A DNA stretch of 26,429 bases from Candidatus Ratteibacteria bacterium. Lineage in GTDB: Bacteria; Ratteibacteria; UBA8468; B48-G9; DTJG01. This document shows positions 4,461 to 25,055 of this stretch, in pieces. The notes beneath the pieces were generated by a model, which was given only the letters and a program-made list of their open reading frames with translations, had not been told where the DNA came from and ran no database searches. A program made the position numbers and the translations under genes. Numbering within the stretch: position 1 is the stretch's first letter; every line of letters begins with the position of its first letter. The stretch covers positions 1-26,429 of the forward strand of contig JBMFLH010000022.1 of NCBI GenBank assembly GCA_049971295.1, given 5' to 3'.

Positions 4461-5233
4461 ATCTTTTTGCCCCTTCTTTTCATCGTGTCTTTCGTGCTGA
4501 TGGGCTGAACAACTTTTTTATGTGCAGAATAAACTGATACATACGGCAGACTTTCAAAAAATTTCTCCACTTCCTTAAACGATTCCTGTGAAAGTGGCTT
4601 GACAGCGCTATCCCTGAGCGGAGTATTGAGATAAACAATGTCAGGAGAAAGTTTTCTGCAAATTTCTGCAATTTTCTCCATTTCTTTCAGGTTTTCTTCA
4701 ATCGCCATTATCTGAATTGTAAAAAGTCCCTGATAAACTTTCCTGAAATCCGCAAGATGATTGAGAATTGTGTCAAGTGTAATTCTGCAGCATGGACGAT
4801 TAACTTTTTCAAATGTTTTCTGGGTGGCTGCGTCTATTTTGAATGAAACAAGGTCCATCACGCAAAGATCTTTTTTCACAGAAGCATCTGTGATCGTGGT
4901 ACTATTGGTCAAAATGGCACATCTACCCTTTTTTTCATTTTTTATCCAGGTAGCGAGTTTTTTGAAGTCTTTAGCAAGGGTTGGCTCGCCCTTGCCTGAA
5001 AAAGTGTAAAAGTCAATCTCAAGTTCTGGCAGTTGTTTTAATTCCTCTATCACTGCCTCTGCTGGCACATAAACTTTTCTTTCGCATGTAAAAATGCCTG
5101 TCCTTCCTATCTGACAATAAACGCAGTCAAAAGAACAGATTTTTTTCTCCTGCGAAAGCTGGTCGATACCTAACGAAGCTCCTAATCTCCACGAACTGAC
5201 AGGTCCATAAATGTACTTGAATGCTTTTTGCAT
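4457..5233 (-). CDS. Radical SAM protein (Tyw1/Taw1-related Fe-S oxidoreductase family)
   Basis: YIYGPVSSWRLGASLGID, CSFDCVYCQIG (CxxxCxxC) and GKGEPTL. Start moved to ATG at 5233, directly after the sulfatase stop. Confidence 0.88.
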   Translation of the reverse strand: MQKAFKYIYGPVSSWRLGASLGIDQLSQEKKICSFDCVYCQIGRTGIFTCERKVYVPAEAVIEELKQLPELEIDFYTFSGKGEPTLAKDFKKLATWIKNEKKGRCAILTNSTTITDASVKKDLCVMDLVSFKIDAATQKTFEKVNRPCCRITLDTILNHLADFRKVYQGLFTIQIMAIEENLKEMEKIAEICRKLSPDIVYLNTPLRDSAVKPLSQESFKEVEKFFESLPYVSVYSAHKKVVQPISTKDTMKRRGKKI

Positions 5234-16370: not shown

Positions 16371-16712
16371 CCCTGCTGTCCAATAAAAACCTTATGAATT
16401 TTTGTAATGACAACCCCCAAGGGTAAGGTAGAATAGAGAGAAGAACTCCACCATTACCCAGGGAGGTTGTCTATGAAATATATCAGCACAATTTTCAATC
16501 AATTGCTGAATATGTTACCGGGGTATCAGTTTGAACAGGTTGTTAGGAGAGAGCAAGCGGATAGATATACCAAACACTTCACAGCGTGGAAGTTGCTGGT
16601 AAATCTATGCGCACAGATAACAGGAAAGAAGAGCTTAAGAGACATAGAGACGGGATTGAAGATGCAGCAGAATGCGTTTCCCCGGGCAAAATTCAGAAAG
16701 ACCAAGGGGTAA
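16371..16712 (+). mobile_element. IS4-family (DUF4372-type) insertion sequence, left-end remnant
   Basis: CCCTGCTGTCCAATAAA at 16371 resembles the terminal repeat of this IS4 group as I recall it. It is followed by an AGGGAGG RBS and an N-terminal transposase fragment. Confidence 0.65.
16467..16712 (+). pseudogene. IS4-family transposase N-terminal (DUF4372) fragment
   Basis: STIFNQLL..LP...F...V....ADRYTKHFTAW......AQITGKKSLRDIETGL; no DDE domain follows. Confidence 0.8.
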
Positions 16713-16897
16713 AAGTGGCACAAACGGTAATCGGATTGCAGGAACCTGCTGAACTGAACCAGATGAACATACCTTTTCCACCAATTATGATGAGAACAAT
16801 TTATACATCATTGCCTATGATGTGATAGACAGAAGATAGTTTTTTAACGATATCAGGTGTATTTGCTATTTTTTGCATCAAGTGATAAAACATACAT

Positions 16898-17699: not shown

Positions 17700-18215
17700 A
17701 TGGCAAAATTCAGAAGAAGAAAATATCTTATCAACAAACCGGTTCAAATCGGATATTTCGGATTAACTGCGTGGTTTATATGTCTGGGGATATTACTGGT
17801 TGGAAGCATCACCTATTATATCACGCTCAATACCATTATCAATGAAATTCAAATTACATCGCCTGCATTTGACGCAGTTGAGACAGTACAAAAAATTAAT
17901 CTTTTGCTTCAGAAGAAACTTGCTGGTGTTTTTGTGGGGCTTGTTATTGTCGCTGCGATTCTGGTCATTCTGTATTTACACAGGGTTGTAGGTCCTGTTT
18001 TCAGAATTGAAAAAACGTTGCACGAGGTGATTGAAGGCAAACCATTTAATCCTATCAAACTCAGGAAAAAGGATAGTTTCAAATCCCTTGCTGAAACCAT
18101 TAATACTTTCGTCCTGCATTATGAAGAGAAAAATCAAAAAACAAAAGAAGTCCTGAATGAAAACCTATCAGACGCAGAAAAAATCCAGCAAATTAAGGAA
18201 ATTTTTAAGGATTAA
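17700..18215 (+). CDS. Small 2-TM membrane protein with HAMP-like domain
   Basis: RRRKYLINKPVQ, two TM helices, then HRVVGPVFRIEKTL...IKLRKKDSFKSLAETIN (HAMP-like). Confidence 0.75.
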   Translation: MAKFRRRKYLINKPVQIGYFGLTAWFICLGILLVGSITYYITLNTIINEIQITSPAFDAVETVQKINLLLQKKLAGVFVGLVIVAAILVILYLHRVVGPVFRIEKTLHEVIEGKPFNPIKLRKKDSFKSLAETINTFVLHYEEKNQKTKEVLNENLSDAEKIQQIKEIFKD

Positions 18216-18522
18216 CCCTTTCAGCATCAAGCCATAGTTTTTCAAGATTATAGAATTCTCTTGTTTCTGGCAGAAAAATATGCAGGACAAAATCTCCGTA
18301 ATCAAGCAAAATCCAGTTTGTTTCAAACCCTTCAATTGAAAAAGGAGGGCTATTGAACTTTTCAATCACTGCTTCTGCCATTGCCCTAATTTGAATTGTT
18401 GTTTCGCCTGAGACAATGATCAAATAATCGGTAATCCAGGTGAGTTTCCTAACATCAAGAATTACAATGTTTTCTGCATTTTTTTCTTCAAGGATTGCCA
18501 GTAATTTTTTCAGTTTCTCTAT
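18205..18522 (-). CDS. rsfS: Ribosome silencing factor RsfS (Iojap), probable ATA start
   Basis: Frame extends upstream of the listed ORF: EEKNAENIVILDVRKLTWITDYLIIVSG...QIRAMAE...EG...WILLDYGDFVLHIFLPETREFYNLEKLW. AGGAG lies 5 nt before the ATA at 18522. Confidence 0.93.
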   Translation of the reverse strand: MEKLKKLLAILEEKNAENIVILDVRKLTWITDYLIIVSGETTIQIRAMAEAVIEKFNSPPFSIEGFETNWILLDYGDFVLHIFLPETREFYNLEKLWLDAERVNP

Positions 18523-18550: not shown

Positions 18551-18623
18551 GAATCTCCGCTATTTCTCAACTTCTGCAAGGTGTTCACTGGACAGAAAGC
18601 ATTTCTTGCGTTAAACTTGTTGC

Positions 18624-19658
18624 ATGAGAAAAATAAACCTGGCTATGATTTTTTCTTTCAGCATTTTTATTTTTCCCTCGTATGGACATCTCTGTGATAA
18701 TGTTTTCCGTCAGGCAGACAAACTCATTGTTAAGCCAGAAACCTACAATATAGTTGTGAAAGATAAAGCGACGTTCAAAATTTTTCTGCAAAACAATATG
18801 GACAGAGGCATTGCAGAAATCAGGTTGCTTGCTGAAAGTCCTGCGTTTGACTTCCAGATTTATCCTGAAAAGATGTCAATTCCAAAAGACCAGAGGGTAT
18901 ATTTTGAAGTGACAATGATTCCCAAACCTTCTACCTCCTCAGGAAACTATTCTGTAACTTTCAGATTGGTTGGTGGTGGAAGACAATTCAAAAGTTTCAG
19001 TATTGATATATCAGGTGATAAAGGGGACTCTGGCGAAATAAAAAAAGAAACACAACAAACCAGTCAGGTTCCTTTAATGAAGACACGATCAATTCTGTCT
19101 GTTCGCAGAACAAACCAATCTCCAAAAATAGATGGAAGGATTGTAGAAGAATGCTGGAAAAATGCTGGCGTTGCCGGAAATTTCTGTTTGTTTAATCAGG
19201 GCAAGCCGGTCTATCAGACCGTCGGGTTGCTTGCGTATGATTCAGAAGCAATGTATCTTGCATTTTACTGCAGGGACGGAACTCCGGAAAAAATCTCGGA
19301 TAAGGATAAGATTGAAATACAGATATCACCTGATCGGACAGGCAAAAACTATTATTCTATTATTCTGACAGGCGACGAAAAAATTTCCTGCAAAAAGGCC
19401 AGTTTCAACGGTGAATTTCAAACAGTATCTATAAATGGATTGAAATACGCCATGTCAAAAGGTGTGATTGCGTGGATGGTTGAAATTGCCATTCCCTTTT
19501 CTTCTATCGGAACCAGAGTTCCTGAGTCAGGAAATATCTGGGCTTTGCGAATCATACGAACAAAGGCAACGCAATCCTTTGAAGAAAGTTTCTGGGCAGT
19601 TGATGCATCATCCTATCATCAGGAAAAAGGGTTTGGTCAGGTTGTTTTTGAGCAATAA
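18624..19658 (+). CDS. Exported protein: signal peptide, Ig-like N-terminal domain and CBM9-like (DOMON-like) C-terminal domain
   Basis: Signal peptide ending SYG|HLCD and a beta-rich domain (IFLQNN...GNYSVTFRL). CBM9-like motifs PKIDGRIVEECW, YDSEAMYLAFYC.D, D.IEI.I and WMVEIAIPFSSIG. Confidence 0.75.
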   Translation: MRKINLAMIFSFSIFIFPSYGHLCDNVFRQADKLIVKPETYNIVVKDKATFKIFLQNNMDRGIAEIRLLAESPAFDFQIYPEKMSIPKDQRVYFEVTMIPKPSTSSGNYSVTFRLVGGGRQFKSFSIDISGDKGDSGEIKKETQQTSQVPLMKTRSILSVRRTNQSPKIDGRIVEECWKNAGVAGNFCLFNQGKPVYQTVGLLAYDSEAMYLAFYCRDGTPEKISDKDKIEIQISPDRTGKNYYSIILTGDEKISCKKASFNGEFQTVSINGLKYAMSKGVIAWMVEIAIPFSSIGTRVPESGNIWALRIIRTKATQSFEESFWAVDASSYHQEKGFGQVVFEQ

Positions 19659-19669
19659 TGTGCATCCCG

Positions 19670-20194
19670 ATGAAAAAATTGATTCTCGTCGTGTTCGTTT
19701 TTGCATATGTTTTCATTGGCTGGGCTGAACAGATTGACATTAATTTCGAATATCCCGACATAGAAGGCGATTTTTATCTTGCTGGGACGGTTTTTTTTCC
19801 GCCGTCTTCTGTTATGTCTGTCAATAACATCCTTGTGCTGGACGCCGGTACGAAAAACGAGATTGCTTCAAAAATTACGGTACAGGAAAAATGGCCTGAT
19901 GATTCAATTATGAGCGTCGAGATTATTTTCCCTGCAAACAGTCAGAAAAAAACAAATTATGCCATCCATTATGGAAGTGATATCAAAAGAAGAAAAACCT
20001 TTTCTGAACCTGCAGTTCTTCCCACGATTTCCTTTTTTCCAGCAGGTGCCGGAAGGCCTGTGGAAAATGTTGACATATCGGTTGGTCAGATCAATGTGAG
20101 GGTTGACAAGAGCACCAGTATCAGATACTGGTGGTACATTGCGCCGATGGGGATTTTTTGTTTTTCACTGTTTACAGAAGCGTCAGAACCATAA
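19670..20194 (+). CDS. Hypothetical exported/membrane-anchored protein (C-terminus probably frameshifted; restored end 20211)
   Basis: MKKLILVVFVFAYVFIGWA signal peptide and a beta-rich body. A C-terminal hydrophobic segment starts at YWWYIAPMG. Confidence 0.65.
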   Translation: MKKLILVVFVFAYVFIGWAEQIDINFEYPDIEGDFYLAGTVFFPPSSVMSVNNILVLDAGTKNEIASKITVQEKWPDDSIMSVEIIFPANSQKKTNYAIHYGSDIKRRKTFSEPAVLPTISFFPAGAGRPVENVDISVGQINVRVDKSTSIRYWWYIAPMGIFCFSLFTEASEP

Positions 20195-20207
20195 GGACTC
20201 AGAAATC

Positions 20208-21281
20208 ATGATACGCATTTCAGTCGCAAGAAGAATCGTTCAAGTTATCTGTCTTGTGCTTCTTGTTTATGGCGGTTATATTTTTAAGGACTGGAAAGAA
20301 TCCGCTGAAACCAGCCAGCAGTCAATTTTCCCTTCTCTCAAAGCACCAGAAGGAAGCGTGTCCACAACACAGTTTGAAAAGGGAAGCATTCTATGGCCAT
20401 CAGGAGCAACACCTGTAATTGAAAACTATCCACCTTCACTTGTATGTAGATTTAATCCAAAAGGAGGAATGTTCAAGGCATGCATCATGCACTTTTTTTC
20501 AGAAAATCTTACATGGCAAACACCTTTCAAATATCTTTTGCCGTATATCACTCTTTTTATTGCTCTGTGTTTTCTGCTTGGAAGGGCATGGTGCGGATGG
20601 GTGTGTCCAATTGGAACAGTTGGAGATTTCCTTACATATCTGCGCAGGAAAATGAATATCCCGGTCAGAAGGTTCCCGGAACGATTCAGATTTAACCTTT
20701 CCATCACAGGATATTCACTTATGGTGATTTCCCTTGCCATTTCAACTGTCATAGGCATGCCAAATTACGCAAGATTTCAATGCTACTGGTTTCTTCCTTA
20801 CTGCCAGATATGTCCTGCAAGATTGATATGTCCAATGTTTGGTCTGATAAAACCGAACTGGAAGGACTTTTCAACCGGTATTACCACCTGCTTTACGTTT
20901 CTTGCCTGGATTGTACTGGGACTTTTTGTTGCAGCGTTTTATTTTGGAAGAAGGGTCTGGTGTCATATGTGTCCTGTAGGACTGATTAATTCCTGGTTCA
21001 ATAAAGGTTCAGGAATAGAACTTCATAAGAAAGCCATCAGGTGTATTAAGTGCGGATACTGCGCGGATGCCTGTCCCATGGGGCTGACAGCAATGTATGA
21101 GTTGAACAAGGATGCCATTTACAATCAGACAGGTTGTATCATGTGTATGAGATGCGTGGAAGTATGTCCAAGAAAGGGCTGTCTGAACGTCAGTTTTTTT
21201 GGAAAAAAGATTGGTAATATGCAAAGGAGAAAATTAGATGCAAAAAAAGTTTCTGAGCCAGTACAGGGAAATATTGCGTAA
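20208..21281 (+). CDS. Membrane-bound 4Fe-4S binding protein (NapH/MauN-like polyferredoxin)
   Basis: RRIVQ, GRAWCGWVCPIG, RVWCHMCPVG, two ferredoxin motifs (CIKCGYCADACP, CIMCMRCVEVCP), extra CQICP..ICP, and several TM helices. Confidence 0.88.
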   Translation: MIRISVARRIVQVICLVLLVYGGYIFKDWKESAETSQQSIFPSLKAPEGSVSTTQFEKGSILWPSGATPVIENYPPSLVCRFNPKGGMFKACIMHFFSENLTWQTPFKYLLPYITLFIALCFLLGRAWCGWVCPIGTVGDFLTYLRRKMNIPVRRFPERFRFNLSITGYSLMVISLAISTVIGMPNYARFQCYWFLPYCQICPARLICPMFGLIKPNWKDFSTGITTCFTFLAWIVLGLFVAAFYFGRRVWCHMCPVGLINSWFNKGSGIELHKKAIRCIKCGYCADACPMGLTAMYELNKDAIYNQTGCIMCMRCVEVCPRKGCLNVSFFGKKIGNMQRRKLDAKKVSEPVQGNIA

Positions 21282-22479
21282 GAATCTGAAATGCAATAGC
21301 CCTGATTCTGAGAATATGTCAGCCCGTGTTTTTGAGTATATGAAAAAATCCAATCTTTCCTCAATGGAAGGATTTTATCAGGCAATATTAGATTTTGGAA
21401 GAAATGGAATAGATATCAGTGAAAAACCCATTGGATTTTTTTGCAACGTTGTTCCTGAAGAAATTATGCTTGCCGGTTCTCTGCGACCTGTAAGGTTGTG
21501 CTGCGAGGAGTATGAATGCGGTTCAAAAGGAGAAGAAATTGTGCCTGGAGATATTTGCCCTGTAATTAAGTCAATCTGCGGTAAATTTTACAGCAATTCA
21601 TACGACAATCTTGAAGTTGTTGTGATACCCGGCACATGTGACCCGAAAGCAAAACTTGCCGAGATTCTATCACCCGTAAAACAGGTGTATTTTCTTGACA
21701 CTGGAAGGGACTCTGAATACCTGGCCAATGTTGATATCTGGGAAAAAAAATATACACAATTTTTCCAGTTTTTGAAAGAAACATTTCACTGCAGTGCAGG
21801 GAGGCGGCAATTACTTTCAGCATGCAAACTTACAAATGCCCGCACAGAAGTTTTCAGAAATATTTATCAATTGAGAGCAGAACAGCCAGATGCGATTAAT
21901 GTTTTTGATTATTACATCATGATGTATGCTGGTTTTTTTATGAAGGTTGAAAAATGGAACGCTCTTGCAGAAAAGGTTTATCGACAGGCAAAACAAATTC
22001 ACAGATTTGTTGATAAACCCAGAATTCTTCTTGCTGGAACACCGGTAATTTTTCCCAATTTTAAGATTATTGATGTGATGGAAGAATCTGGATTAAAAAT
22101 GGCAGCAGACCTTCAGTGCATATCATTCGGGAGATTCTATAATCCTGTGATGATAGATGAAGAAACAGAAGCAGGCATCCTGCGGGCTTTAACATTGAAA
22201 AATATTGCCGGGAGCATGTGTCCGTGCTTACTGAATCTGGAGAAACTGGTCAATCTTATAATTGACACTGTGAATCAGTACAAACTTGACGGTGTCATTT
22301 ATTACAATCTAAGATTGTGTCAGGTTTTTGAGTTACAGACAGCATTAATCAGGCAGATTCTGAAAGAAAAAGGGATACCATTTCTTTCAATAAAAACAGA
22401 CCTTGGAAAAGAAGACACAGGACAATTGAAAACCAGAATGGAAGCATTCAGGGAAATGATTGAATCCCGCAACGAATGA
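21238..22479 (+). CDS. 2-hydroxyacyl-CoA dehydratase (HgdB/FldB/BcrBC) family protein, double-cubane cluster reductase (DCCP)-like
   Basis: IGFFCNVVPEEI, RLC, ICPVIKS, TCDPK, PRILLAGTP, QC, CPC, DGVIYY...CQ and ETD-like KTDL...DTGQLKTRMEAF. Confidence 0.88.
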   Translation: MQKKFLSQYREILRKNLKCNSPDSENMSARVFEYMKKSNLSSMEGFYQAILDFGRNGIDISEKPIGFFCNVVPEEIMLAGSLRPVRLCCEEYECGSKGEEIVPGDICPVIKSICGKFYSNSYDNLEVVVIPGTCDPKAKLAEILSPVKQVYFLDTGRDSEYLANVDIWEKKYTQFFQFLKETFHCSAGRRQLLSACKLTNARTEVFRNIYQLRAEQPDAINVFDYYIMMYAGFFMKVEKWNALAEKVYRQAKQIHRFVDKPRILLAGTPVIFPNFKIIDVMEESGLKMAADLQCISFGRFYNPVMIDEETEAGILRALTLKNIAGSMCPCLLNLEKLVNLIIDTVNQYKLDGVIYYNLRLCQVFELQTALIRQILKEKGIPFLSIKTDLGKEDTGQLKTRMEAFREMIESRNE

Positions 22480-22489
22480 AGGAGGCAAC

Positions 22490-23248
22490 GTGTGGAAGGC
22501 AGGTATTGATATGGGTTCTGTGATGGTGAAATGTGTAATTGTTAATGGTGAGACAATAATCGCAAAATCCGCAGCAAGGACTGTGCCGATGCCCGAAATT
22601 ATCGCAGACACAGTTTTGCAACAGGCACTTACAAACGCAGGGATTGATTTTTCTCTCATTGAAAAAATTGTATGTACTGGTTATGGCAGATACATCTATA
22701 CAAAGACACATGCAAAAGTAACAGAAATTTCTGCTGCAGCAAGGGCATCCTTTTTGCTTTCTGGAAAACAGAGATGTCTTGTGATTGATTTGGGTGGCCA
22801 GGACACAAAAATTATAGAGGTGGACCACAATGGAGAGGTGGTTGATTTTTTAATGAATGACAAGTGTGCGGCTGGAACAGGGAGGTTTCTTGAAATGATG
22901 GCAGGTGTTTTAGGCACAGACCTTCATGGTTTTGGAACACTTTCTTTAAAGGCAGAAAGACCCGTGACTATCAATGCTACATGCAGTGTTTTTGCAGAAA
23001 GCGAAGTAATTTCCTTGCTTGCCCATAATGAAAAAAAGGAGAACATTGCTGCTGGGCTTCTTAATGCAATTGCCGGGAGAATTTCAACCATGTTAAATCA
23101 TTTTCAGAGTCAGATGCCAGTTTTTTTCTGTGGTGGTCCAGCAGGGATACCAGGGCTGAAGCAGGCAATTGAAAAGGTAAGTGAAAGAAACATTAAAATT
23201 TTTGATAATTCGGGGTTTGTGGTTGCCTATGGTGCTGCGCTCAGTTGA
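22490..23248 (+). CDS. ATP-dependent [4Fe-4S] activase (acyl-CoA dehydratase activator, HgdC/DCCP-R type, ASKHA fold)
   Basis: GIDMGS, TGYGR, IDLGGQDTK, MNDKCAAGTGRFLE and TCSVFAESEVIS. GGAGG RBS precedes the GTG at 22490. Confidence 0.93.
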   Translation: MWKAGIDMGSVMVKCVIVNGETIIAKSAARTVPMPEIIADTVLQQALTNAGIDFSLIEKIVCTGYGRYIYTKTHAKVTEISAAARASFLLSGKQRCLVIDLGGQDTKIIEVDHNGEVVDFLMNDKCAAGTGRFLEMMAGVLGTDLHGFGTLSLKAERPVTINATCSVFAESEVISLLAHNEKKENIAAGLLNAIAGRISTMLNHFQSQMPVFFCGGPAGIPGLKQAIEKVSERNIKIFDNSGFVVAYGAALS

Positions 23249-23273
23249 CAGGATGAAAAAGTTTTAATAAAAT
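23245..23273 (+). promoter_or_regulatory. Sigma70-type promoter for the ferredoxin gene
   Basis: TTGACA (23245-23250), 17-nt spacer, TAAAAT (23268-23273); GAGGAGG RBS downstream. Confidence 0.7.
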
Positions 23274-23308
23274 TATCTGGTCTATTTTTTTCTCAAAGAG
23301 GAGGAAAA

Positions 23309-23494
23309 ATGAGAGTGAAGATCGATGAAAATACCTGCACTGGATGCGGTCTATGCGCAGATAGTTGTCCTGAAGTATTTGAAATGGGAGATACAACAGC
23401 AAAGGTGATTGCTGACCCAGTACCAGCAGATCAGGAAGAATGCGCAAGAGAAGCTGCCGAAAATTGTCCGGTAGATGCGATATCTATTGAATAA
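23309..23494 (+). CDS. Monocluster [4Fe-4S] ferredoxin
   Basis: CTGCGLCADSCPEVF...C..AAENCPVDAI; acidic 61-aa protein with a strong RBS. Confidence 0.95.
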   Translation: MRVKIDENTCTGCGLCADSCPEVFEMGDTTAKVIADPVPADQEECAREAAENCPVDAISIE

Positions 23495-25055
23495 AAGGTT
23501 TTATAGAGCAGTTTCAGGTATATCCATTGTTGCAATTTTTGTTGCTGGATGCAACCTGAACCACAGAGAAAAGGCGCAACAACATCTTCTGAAGGCACTG
23601 CAAGAGTACAGACAGGACATCGTTAAAAATCCTGATGATAGGGCTCTTGAAGAGAAGTATTATGTGCTTGCCAGATTGACGCTTGGCGACATTCAGGCAA
23701 AGATAGAGCTTGCTTTGATATATCAGGAAACCGGCAAGTCCGACCAGGCAACAGAAATCCTGAAACAAATTTCTACAGAAAATCCTGAGCAGGCATCTGG
23801 ATACCTGAAAAAAAAATTAGAATCTGCATATAGCATTGAGCAACGCATTGGAATTTATCAGGCACTTTCATATCTCAATCCGCAGGATACAAGCTATCTT
23901 GAGCAACTTGGTCGATTGTATCTTGGAACAAACCAAACAGAAAAAGCAATTATTGCGCTGGGAAACGCCATAAATTATGGCAGTAGAAACAGCGAGACAA
24001 TAAAATATCTTGTCAGGGCATACATAAATCAGAATAGGTATGATAGCGCAGAAAATCTCTTAAAAACACTTATTTCAAAAAAGGATGATATTCAATTAAG
24101 AGAGCAACTTGCTGATGTTTATAAAAAACAGGGCAAGAAGGATCTGTACCTCGCTGAAGTAGAAAAAATTTCCGAAAAAAAGGGAAAAAAGAAACTGATT
24201 GTATTCGAAAAGCCAGAAATTCAGAAAATTCCTGAATTGAAAAAATTTACACTTGGTGAAAAAATATCTGTAGAGCCCTACACATTTCTTGTTGTTGACA
24301 AATCCCTCCAGAAACTTTTTGTTTATAGGTTTGATGGTCAAACTTTTGAGCAACTTACGTCCATAGTGTGCACGACAGGGAAAAATATGGATGATAAAAA
24401 AAGACATGGAGACCTTGCAACTCCTGAAGGAACTTTTCTTATCAGGACATTTATTCCTGGATCAAACCTTGAACCAAAATATGGTGCAGGAGCATATGTG
24501 CTTGATTTTCCTGATTATTTTTCACAGAGACAAAATAAAGATGGAAGTGGTATATGGTTGCATGGGACACCGATTGAAAGACCTCCTTATAACAGCGCAG
24601 GATGCATTGTTGTTAATGACAATGATTTTCGTGCATTGCAACAATATATTGAGCCCGGTAAAACATATATCCACATTTTGAAACAGGAAAAGGATATGAA
24701 TCTTGCTGATTTTGTTCCTGTGTGGAAGACAGTAGTATCCTGGAAACAGGCATGGGAAAGCCTGGATACTGAAAAGTATCTTTCTTATTATGCAGATGAC
24801 TTCAAAAGCGATGGCAAGGATAAAAAGGCATGGAGCCAGTATAAGAAAAAAATAAACAAAGACAAAAAGTATGTGAAACTTGAGTTAAAAGACATAACAA
24901 TTGTTCCGTACGGAAACACGCAATTTGGTTATGTGTTTCTGATAGATGCAATTCAAAAATACGAGTCAAATAATTTGAAAAGCACAACAAGAAAAAATTT
25001 CTATCTGGTCAAGTCCAACGGAACTTATAAAATTATTGGTGAACTTGTAAAATAA
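23475..25055 (+). CDS. Lipoprotein with TPR repeats, L,D-transpeptidase (YkuD) domain and NTF2-like C-terminal domain (Csd6-like architecture)
   Basis: Lipobox VAGC, TPR helices, VVDKS.QKL, GD.ATPEG, GIWLHG...SAGCI and W..AWES.D...YLSYY. Confidence 0.88.
   Translation: MRYLLNKRFYRAVSGISIVAIFVAGCNLNHREKAQQHLLKALQEYRQDIVKNPDDRALEEKYYVLARLTLGDIQAKIELALIYQETGKSDQATEILKQISTENPEQASGYLKKKLESAYSIEQRIGIYQALSYLNPQDTSYLEQLGRLYLGTNQTEKAIIALGNAINYGSRNSETIKYLVRAYINQNRYDSAENLLKTLISKKDDIQLREQLADVYKKQGKKDLYLAEVEKISEKKGKKKLIVFEKPEIQKIPELKKFTLGEKISVEPYTFLVVDKSLQKLFVYRFDGQTFEQLTSIVCTTGKNMDDKKRHGDLATPEGTFLIRTFIPGSNLEPKYGAGAYVLDFPDYFSQRQNKDGSGIWLHGTPIERPPYNSAGCIVVNDNDFRALQQYIEPGKTYIHILKQEKDMNLADFVPVWKTVVSWKQAWESLDTEKYLSYYADDFKSDGKDKKAWSQYKKKINKDKKYVKLELKDITIVPYGNTQFGYVFLIDAIQKYESNNLKSTTRKNFYLVKSNGTYKIIGELVK

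Follow-up and report, generated by a model that had tools for sequence, protein, structure and literature searches.

What does an ATP-driven reductase of the double-cubane cluster protein (DCCP) type do when its gene is packed together with genes for a membrane polyferredoxin and two exported proteins? This question is raised by a 26,429-nucleotide stretch of Candidatus Ratteibacteria DNA (the window), which is one contig (C22) of a 1.89 Mb genome that is 92% complete. The original prediction, made from the letters of the window, was of a membrane-linked, ATP-driven low-potential reduction system, and the five packed, co-oriented genes that it described are all present as open reading frames (ORFs) that abut or overlap one another (genes 1 to 5, Table 1). 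Our analysis identifies a conserved five-gene system composed of known protein families in an arrangement that we have not found described, and it suggests that the target of the DCCP enzyme is something trapped at the cell surface. The five genes are genuine, and very likely they form a single unit.

Sequence comparison assigns gene 4 as a divergent DCCP that lies outside the curated equivalog by score, and gene 5 as its activase. The best match of gene 4 (HGD-D domain) in the Protein Data Bank (PDB) is DCCP (7YYL/6ENO; E 8e-42 in a single-sequence search and 3e-92 with a profile), compared with 6e-22 and 5e-43 for HadC. On hidden Markov models (HMMs), it scores 233.5 bits on the DCCP equivalog NF040772, below the cut-off of 350 (three relatives score 211.5-272.6 bits), and far less on dehydratase and benzoyl-CoA reductase models, namely 102.6 on HadC (cut-off 700), 25.4 on HadB (750), 65 on BcrC (421) and 40.3 on BzdN (453.8). 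Seven cysteines (C69, C88, C107, C134, C294, C328 and C361) are conserved without exception (27/27) in an alignment of 25 cassette proteins and two other DCCPs, and align to the six cluster ligands and the Cys94 equivalent of DCCP. Their spacers are 18, 18, 26, 159, 33 and 32 residues, two of them shorter than in the DCCP motif given in passages of PMC7317905 (26 versus 29, and 159 versus 166-170). The N-terminus carries about 60 extra residues, the DCCP profile alignment beginning at DCCP residue 38, and the subfamily forms its own clade (SH-aLRT 97) in a quick tree built without Carboxydothermus hydrogenoformans, Had or Bcr sequences. The locus shares with DCCP/DCCP-R of C. hydrogenoformans (6ENO, 7YYL) a single HGD-D gene beside an ASKHA activase, the seven Cys and, apparently, an N-terminal extension, and differs in the NF040772 score and the two spacers. 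Gene 4 is the one PF06050 match in the genome, and tblastn of the genome found no paralogue of gene 4 or gene 5; the predicted single HgdB-family protein accordingly has no partner subunit that we could find. Gene 5 (BcrAD_BadFG), which starts with GTG preceded by AGGAGG, scores 226 bits on TIGR00241, above the cut-off of 125.4, and keeps the cluster-ligand cysteines C126 and C165 in 21/21 rows, the counterparts in DCCP-R being C115/C152 according to part of PMC9351452.

The association of these two genes with their neighbors extends well beyond this genome, to several groups of anaerobic bacteria. In a sample of 65 genomes of the host phylum, in which kin are not independent, the full gene-1 N-domain occurs in 24, a gene-3 orthologue in 25 and a strong PF06050 match in 27, and these sets are nested: all 24 lie within the 25, and all 25 within the 27. 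All 24 genomes with the full gene-1 domain therefore hold gene 3 together with DCCP, full or split, whereas 38 of the 65 have none of genes 1, 3 and DCCP at full strength. Two of the extra genomes (G051 and G049) are 54% and 64% complete, with contigs ending inside the cassette, and a third (G050) has distant homologues on separate contigs. The original prediction had named two outcomes as fatal to it, failure of the reductase-activase pair to co-occur with the polyferredoxin and the exported proteins, and grouping of the reductase with ordinary dehydratase subunits together with a partner subunit of its own encoded elsewhere; neither was observed. Among 33 metagenome gene-1 loci, several of which repeat organisms already counted, further cassette genes are visible in 28: 17 have all five genes in order, 11 have part of them, and 5 end at gene 1. 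Even where gene 1 is just 32-37% identical, in high-GC loci, the genes stand in this order, and the homologues are labelled, for example, Ratteibacteria and Omnitrophica, with one pair labelled Eremiobacteraeota. The operon is split in three ways (1-4-5 / 2-3 in G016 and G020; 1-2-3 / 4-5 in G017; 4, 1-2-3 in L068), with all five genes retained in the three split genomes and four seen in L068, where the locus does not include gene 5.

Gene 3 was predicted to be a Cys-rich NapH/MauN-type membrane polyferredoxin, and sequence and structure prediction both place it in that clan. It contains two Fer4_5 domains and a dicluster domain, the cytoplasmic 2x[4Fe-4S] domain spanning residues 279-320, and its AlphaFold model shows four membrane helices (predicted template-modelling score 0.86). 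From their charge bias, loops 1 and 3 are predicted to face outward, so that C80, C92, H95, C192, C199 and C202 would lie at the outer face and C129/C133 and C252/C255 at the inner face; the model thus has conserved Cys on both faces of the membrane. Among 75 rows, outer C80, C92, C199 and C202, the four inner cysteines and the eight ferredoxin cysteines are invariant, and H95 and C192 are kept in at least 90%. The family is distinct, with 76 clusters at 40% identity or more and then a drop. It shares with NapH (NapGH) and MauN the four helices, two inner CxxxCP-type motifs and the cytoplasmic 2x[4Fe-4S] domain, and differs from them in the extra outer Cys/His set, in a score of 79.7 on the NapH HMM (cut-off 234), in the absence of NapG from the cassette (the genome was not searched for NapG) and in the lack of a quinone-synthesis match in the hosts tested. 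The CcoG/FixG cupric reductase belongs to the same clan, but gene 3 ends right after the ferredoxin domain with no fused C-terminal periplasmic Ig domain; the cassette instead places an Ig domain, which as a lead resembles NEW3/FixG_C clusters as in a split CcoG, on another protein, predicted to begin with His-x-Cys once mature, adds an ATP-driven DCCP partner and has no cytochrome-c assembly match in the five hosts tested. Fold searches with gene 3 matched the ferredoxin domain alone.

A direct link between gene 3 and the DCCP comes from natural fusions. A gene-3 profile was searched over 1.84 billion representatives, and 247 gene-3 homologues were screened for fusions. In P0296, a NapH-like domain is fused to a seven-Cys DCCP, and three proteins with both domains (P0296, P0339 and P0349) are found among the best 120 of 424 matches to P0296, although each is known from just one short contig, so that mis-assembly of any single one is possible. 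In a quick tree the fusions fall in two subclades, in a clade that includes proteins labelled Lachnospiraceae and Ruminococcus. No fusion of the activase, gene 1 or gene 2 to gene 3 was found among the 247 homologues. The fusions support a link between gene 3 and DCCP at the inner face of the membrane, and coupling of the polyferredoxin with DCCP is likely. The predicted wiring of the reductase across the membrane is supported as far as this inner-face link; for the direction of the electrons, the substrate and any contact with the exported proteins, we infer the scheme given below.

Related pairs occur in other settings. In cultured Sulfurovum mangrovi (NZ_CP087125; L095 2623-16402, + strand), a TonB receptor, a DsbD_2-family gene, two polyferredoxins, a DCCP and an activase stand in a row, followed by an RND permease and a second TonB receptor, and one of the polyferredoxins scores 190.7 bits on the gene-3 profile. 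C80, C199 and C202 are kept in the Sulfurovum homologue and in fusion P0349, while the C92 column holds Cys in the former and Ser in the latter, whose second Cys adjoins that column. In genome G027 (L088 3909-10999, - strand), selA-selD-selB-selC (tRNA-Sec) is followed by a second DCCP gene and a NapH-like gene, and the latter is preceded by a 100-residue membrane protein ending in C-P-T-TGA-L-stop (4709-5017), likely a CxxU protein. In G050 (L085 2160-5199, + strand), a TupA-like (83.7 of 400 bits) + TPR protein accompanies an exported protein and a gene-3 relative (37% identity), with DCCP and activase on another contig. Eight gene-3 relatives (P0187, P0188, P0191, P0195, P0204, P0219, P0257 and P0258) carry 150-370 extra N-terminal residues forming membrane or exported domains outside any Pfam family, and P0287 has a long C-terminal extension; some of these extended relatives may stand in for genes 1 and 2. 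The pairing is not universal, since an Acetoanaerobium DCCP has no NapH-like neighbor.

The two exported proteins would supply the outer end of the system. Gene 1 has a Sec-type signal peptide (residues 1-21; cleavage site placed by eye, with a small residue at -1), and the mature protein probably begins with His-Leu-Cys-Asp-Asn on an Ig domain. This stretch, directly after the predicted cleavage site, is the most conserved of the protein (counting rows with a residue, H22 in 67/70, C24 in 69/71, D25 in 71/71 and N26 in 69/71); M59 and M84 are also conserved, and homologues form 78 clusters. The AlphaFold model has a mean pLDDT confidence of 87.8, with low confidence for the N-terminal stretch in the single chain. 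The Ig domain (about residues 30-128) resembles NPCBM_assoc/FixG_C clusters of an atlas at 0.86-0.91, a lead only. The beta-sandwich (about 158-343) is CBM9/DOMON-like (Foldseek match to 1i82, E 4.3e-9, 16% identity), while the Pfam CBM9_1 score at residues 169-341 is 22.7 bits, just below the cut-off of 23.4; the exported Ig and CBM9-like protein of the original prediction is thus recovered by signal peptide, Ig lead and fold, with the family score falling slightly short. The CBM9 fold also includes EbdC; in the homologue alignment, no conserved His or Met suggesting heme was found in this domain, and genes 1 and 2 contain no twin-Arg or heme motif.

Gene 2 matches no Pfam domain, has no conserved Cys or His in an alignment of 32 homologues, and finds a weak lead in the atlas (DUF4861/PcRGLX_1st, 0.78-0.81). 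It was described as exported or anchored, and homologues do show a signal and an anchor: in L001 the C-terminus is a hydrophobic anchor followed by a basic tail, and the gene runs into the start of gene 3, so that gene 2 looks like an anchored adaptor by sequence. In the window, one base is missing at about 20155 relative to L001, L050 and related contigs in 3 runs, which puts the tail out of frame; invariant Arg170 and the basic end of the anchor are lost, as is the coupling to gene 3 through ATGA. A complex prediction of the gene-1 N-domain with genes 2 and 3 scored 0.01 and was used neither for nor against any reading.

The reading that we favor, to which we assign a probability of roughly 0.4, is an ATP-driven module for outward low-potential reduction, in which electrons pass via gene 3 to a thiophilic ligand on gene 1. 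As known for the family, the activase would take an electron from a cytoplasmic carrier, and ATP would drive its injection into the [8Fe-9S] cluster of a gene-4 dimer. Gene 4 may then act as an electron booster for the 2x[4Fe-4S] domain on the cytoplasmic side of gene 3, as the fusions and BzdN suggest; the conserved ligands of gene 3 could carry reducing power from the inner four-Cys site to the outer Cys/His site, where the N-terminal His-x-Cys-Asp-Asn hook of gene 1 would present a thiophilic metal, metalloid or sulfur species for reduction. Gene 2 would serve as the anchored adaptor, and the likely purpose would be reductive mobilization or detoxification. Outward flow is favored because DCCP takes electrons only from its ATPase, neither dithionite nor Ti(III) reducing it otherwise according to passages of PMC7317905, because the double-cubane cluster of BzdN is described in part of PMC11971306 as a transfer and storage cofactor, and because an inward feed lacks an obvious donor. 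A fuller version, which we hold still more tentatively, is that the archerase-DCCP pair spends ATP to bring electrons to a potential below that of ferredoxin and sends them out through a membrane without quinones, via a Cys/Fe-S wire, to a secreted His-Cys metal hook, constituting a new class of envelope redox machine.

Several observations weigh against outward reduction. DCCP on its own, once isolated, catalyzes reactions of small molecules (passages of PMC7317905), and the potential generated with ATP would be squandered on an acceptor close to the usual ferredoxin potential. The fusions come from a DCCP clade other than that of gene 4, to which they are 28-31% identical, and the outer loops are missing from two of the three. 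No conserved substrate clue surrounds the cassette, whose flanks differ by locus: no shared importer was seen (44 of 112 flank or comparison proteins scanned, plus those inspected by eye), no riboswitch was found in 34 sources, and metal-efflux neighbors (Acr3, CDF, ChrA, CutA) occur in just about 5/42 loci (Table 1). By inspection, CbiM (18/65), PF12849 (49/65), NiFe-hydrogenase-like proteins (59/65) and AOR do not track with the cassette. The cassette is also patchy within genera and partly decaying, as shown by a gene-1 remnant of about 42 codons in G055 (L087 3992-4273), where the remainder was not found, by a frameshifted gene 4 in G008 (L048 3624-4864) and by the gene-2 lesion in the window.

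Among the alternatives, the one that survives best, though we consider it doubtful, is that a thiophilic ion is bound outside by gene 1, passed inward by gene 3 through its outer and inner Cys sets and reduced by DCCP in the cytoplasm, by analogy with MerP-MerT-MerA. The Cys sets of gene 3 on both faces would suit such a relay, the fusions tether DCCP to the inner face, and some loci have Acr3, CDF or ChrA neighbors. Passages of PMC7317905 describe narrow small-molecule channels in DCCP, part of whose N-terminal extension gene 4 keeps, and the clan relative CcoG is a cytoplasm-facing cupric reductase in the relevant part of PMC8267372. However, a pure ion relay needs no 2x[4Fe-4S] domain, nothing points to a pore, and related operons carry their own importers.

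An inward feed, in which a NapH-like gene 3 would pass electrons from the membrane or the outside to the activase and DCCP would reduce a cytoplasmic small molecule, is unlikely. It would account for the NapH-like architecture and for the donor that the activase needs, and NapGH is a quinol dehydrogenase in passages of PMC5449189. The five well-assembled cassette genomes tested (92-97% complete) gave no match for the quinone-prenyltransferase UbiA or MqnA, in searches with PF01040 and PF02621 that recovered 14/14 and 4/14 controls, and none for cytochrome-c assembly families; because the prenyltransferase and cytochrome-c assembly matches are missing, a quinol dehydrogenase role for gene 3 is unlikely, and since the exported proteins also lack a cofactor motif, a NapH-style feed has no obvious donor. 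The cassette has no NapG-like gene, and the fusions join gene 3 to DCCP and not to the activase.

Slightly less probable again is a maturation system, in which DCCP and activase would assemble a metal site in gene 3 or gene 1, or activate one there by reduction, for an envelope reaction. ASKHA activators (RACE) reactivate metal cofactors according to passages of PMC7317905, and gene 1 offers a conserved N-terminal ligand set with M59 and M84, but its Sec-type signal implies export unfolded, without a cytoplasmic cofactor, and the exported partner is swapped across the wider family. A DsbD-like relay reducing disulfides of envelope proteins, suggested by the outer CxxC of gene 3 (C199/C202) and by the CPT-TGA protein of G027, is improbable: all five genomes already hold DsbD/CcdA-type domains, the cassette has no thioredoxin, and disulfides need no ATP-boosted potentials. 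That gene 4 encodes a subunit of an ordinary 2-hydroxyacyl-CoA dehydratase or of a benzoyl-CoA reductase, next to its present neighbors by chance, is highly improbable given the lone PF06050 match, the seven Cys, the low HadB/C, Bcr and Bzd scores and the strict co-occurrence with genes 1 and 3, even though it shares their Pfam family and BzdN also has a double-cubane cluster (part of PMC11971306).

The ferredoxin gene that the original prediction noted after the cassette is present (ORF 23309-23494), but the unit consists of the five genes, because a strong promoter-like site (11/12 match, sigma-70-like, 23245-23273) serves the ferredoxin separately by position, and the gene occurs with its promoter region in the cassette-free relatives G001 and G006. 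It lies 3' of the cassette in only 5/20 related loci mapped, with an inserted gene between in 2 of those 5. The ferredoxin overlaps a gene encoding TPR, YkuD L,D-transpeptidase and Cds6_C domains (both genes together at 23309-25055, + strand), and this pair recurs genus-wide with or without the cassette. No sixth cassette member was found in the flanking genes examined. Upstream, a weak promoter-like site raises the possibility that the gene-1 transcript is leaderless, judging from its position; such sites number 23 across the whole region versus 17.9 +/- 5.0 in shuffles.

Table 1 Features of the window and metal-efflux neighbors at related loci
Feature	Position	Strand	Evidence or remark
Gene 1, predicted exported protein	18624..19658	+	Signal peptide, Ig domain, linker, CBM9/DOMON-like beta-sandwich
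Gene 2, predicted signal peptide, beta-sandwich and C-terminal membrane anchor	19670..20211	+	ORF in the window stops at 20194 (base deletion)
Gene 3, NapH/MauN/CcoG-clan polyferredoxin	20208..21281	+	Fer4_5 x2, dicluster domain, AlphaFold
Gene 4, divergent DCCP-type protein with N-terminal extension	21238..22479	+	HGD-D, seven Cys, PDB match
Gene 5, ASKHA activase (DCCP-R/HgdC type)	22490..23248	+	BcrAD_BadFG, TIGR00241
Promoter-like site, weak	18589..18617	+	9/12 match; ends 7 bases before gene-1 ATG
Outside the unit: promoter-like site and monocluster ferredoxin	23245..23494	+	Own promoter-like site; present in cassette-free relatives
Loci with Acr3, CDF, ChrA or CutA adjoining or near the cassette	L033 4132-5202; L034 3683-4732; L056 43-2081; L075 7332-8537; L057 7534-7863		

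A contig joint skipping 18556-23243, seen in three runs, was set aside: it has just 28 letters on one side, and G001 and G006 have rsfS and the ferredoxin on separate contigs. The rsfS gene itself (18205-18522, - strand; Pfam) has no ATG, GTG or TTG at its expected start, where AAGGAG is followed 5 bases later by an ATA in frame, and its start is possibly non-canonical or mutated. Short ORFs at 284-655 and 16467-16825 resemble what we take to be transposase fragments. Two candidate substrates were rejected. A selenium role for the cassette found no Cys-aligned stop codon in 264 tblastn segments and no SelA in 5/5 genomes; for a tungsten client, AOR occurs in 2/65 genomes, both cassette-free, and Mo/W-pterin enzymes in 2/5. 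B12-binding proteins were found in 5/5 genomes in a scan limited to cassette-bearing genomes.

Compared with known systems, the cassette shares with the class I benzoyl-CoA reductase BzdNOPQ the ATP-driven transfer of an electron into an [8Fe-9S] relay or storage cluster (passages of PMC11971306), but it has no BzdO-like catalytic partner, its genes 4 and 5 are single copies where that enzyme has two catalytic-type and two ATPase subunits, and the proposed acceptor is a membrane protein. The alpha/beta heterodimer with three-Cys clusters of the Had/Hgd/Fld enzymes was not found here. Purely functional analogies are offered by CopC, with an N-terminal His on an exported beta-sandwich, by the His/Cys N-terminal Ni-hook of NiSOD, and by the Cys relays across the membrane of MerP/MerT/MerA and DsbD. 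DCCP-like genes near selenium genes are already in print. The tie of a DCCP to a membrane polyferredoxin and two exported proteins is absent from the descriptions in parts of PMC7317905 and PMC9351452. No description of such a linkage was found in the literature searched, which lay outside subscription journals and supplements (DCCP supplements could mention such neighborhoods), nor in passages of PMC9351452, PMC11971306, PMC7306483, PMC10418091, PMC5322559, PMC5449189, PMC8267372 and PMC10134865.

DCCPs are nitrogenase-like ATP-driven reductases whose physiological role was still stated to be unknown in 2025 (part of PMC11971306), and the cassette and the natural fusions name candidate partner proteins for them. 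Because its membrane part has no clear match among solved structures, gene 3 is a structural target, and the related pair in Sulfurovum mangrovi provides a tractable host. If the fuller version of outward reduction is true, it would be the first physiological role for DCCP, and the cassette would be the central part of a modular family whose exported partners can be exchanged to suit different trace elements.

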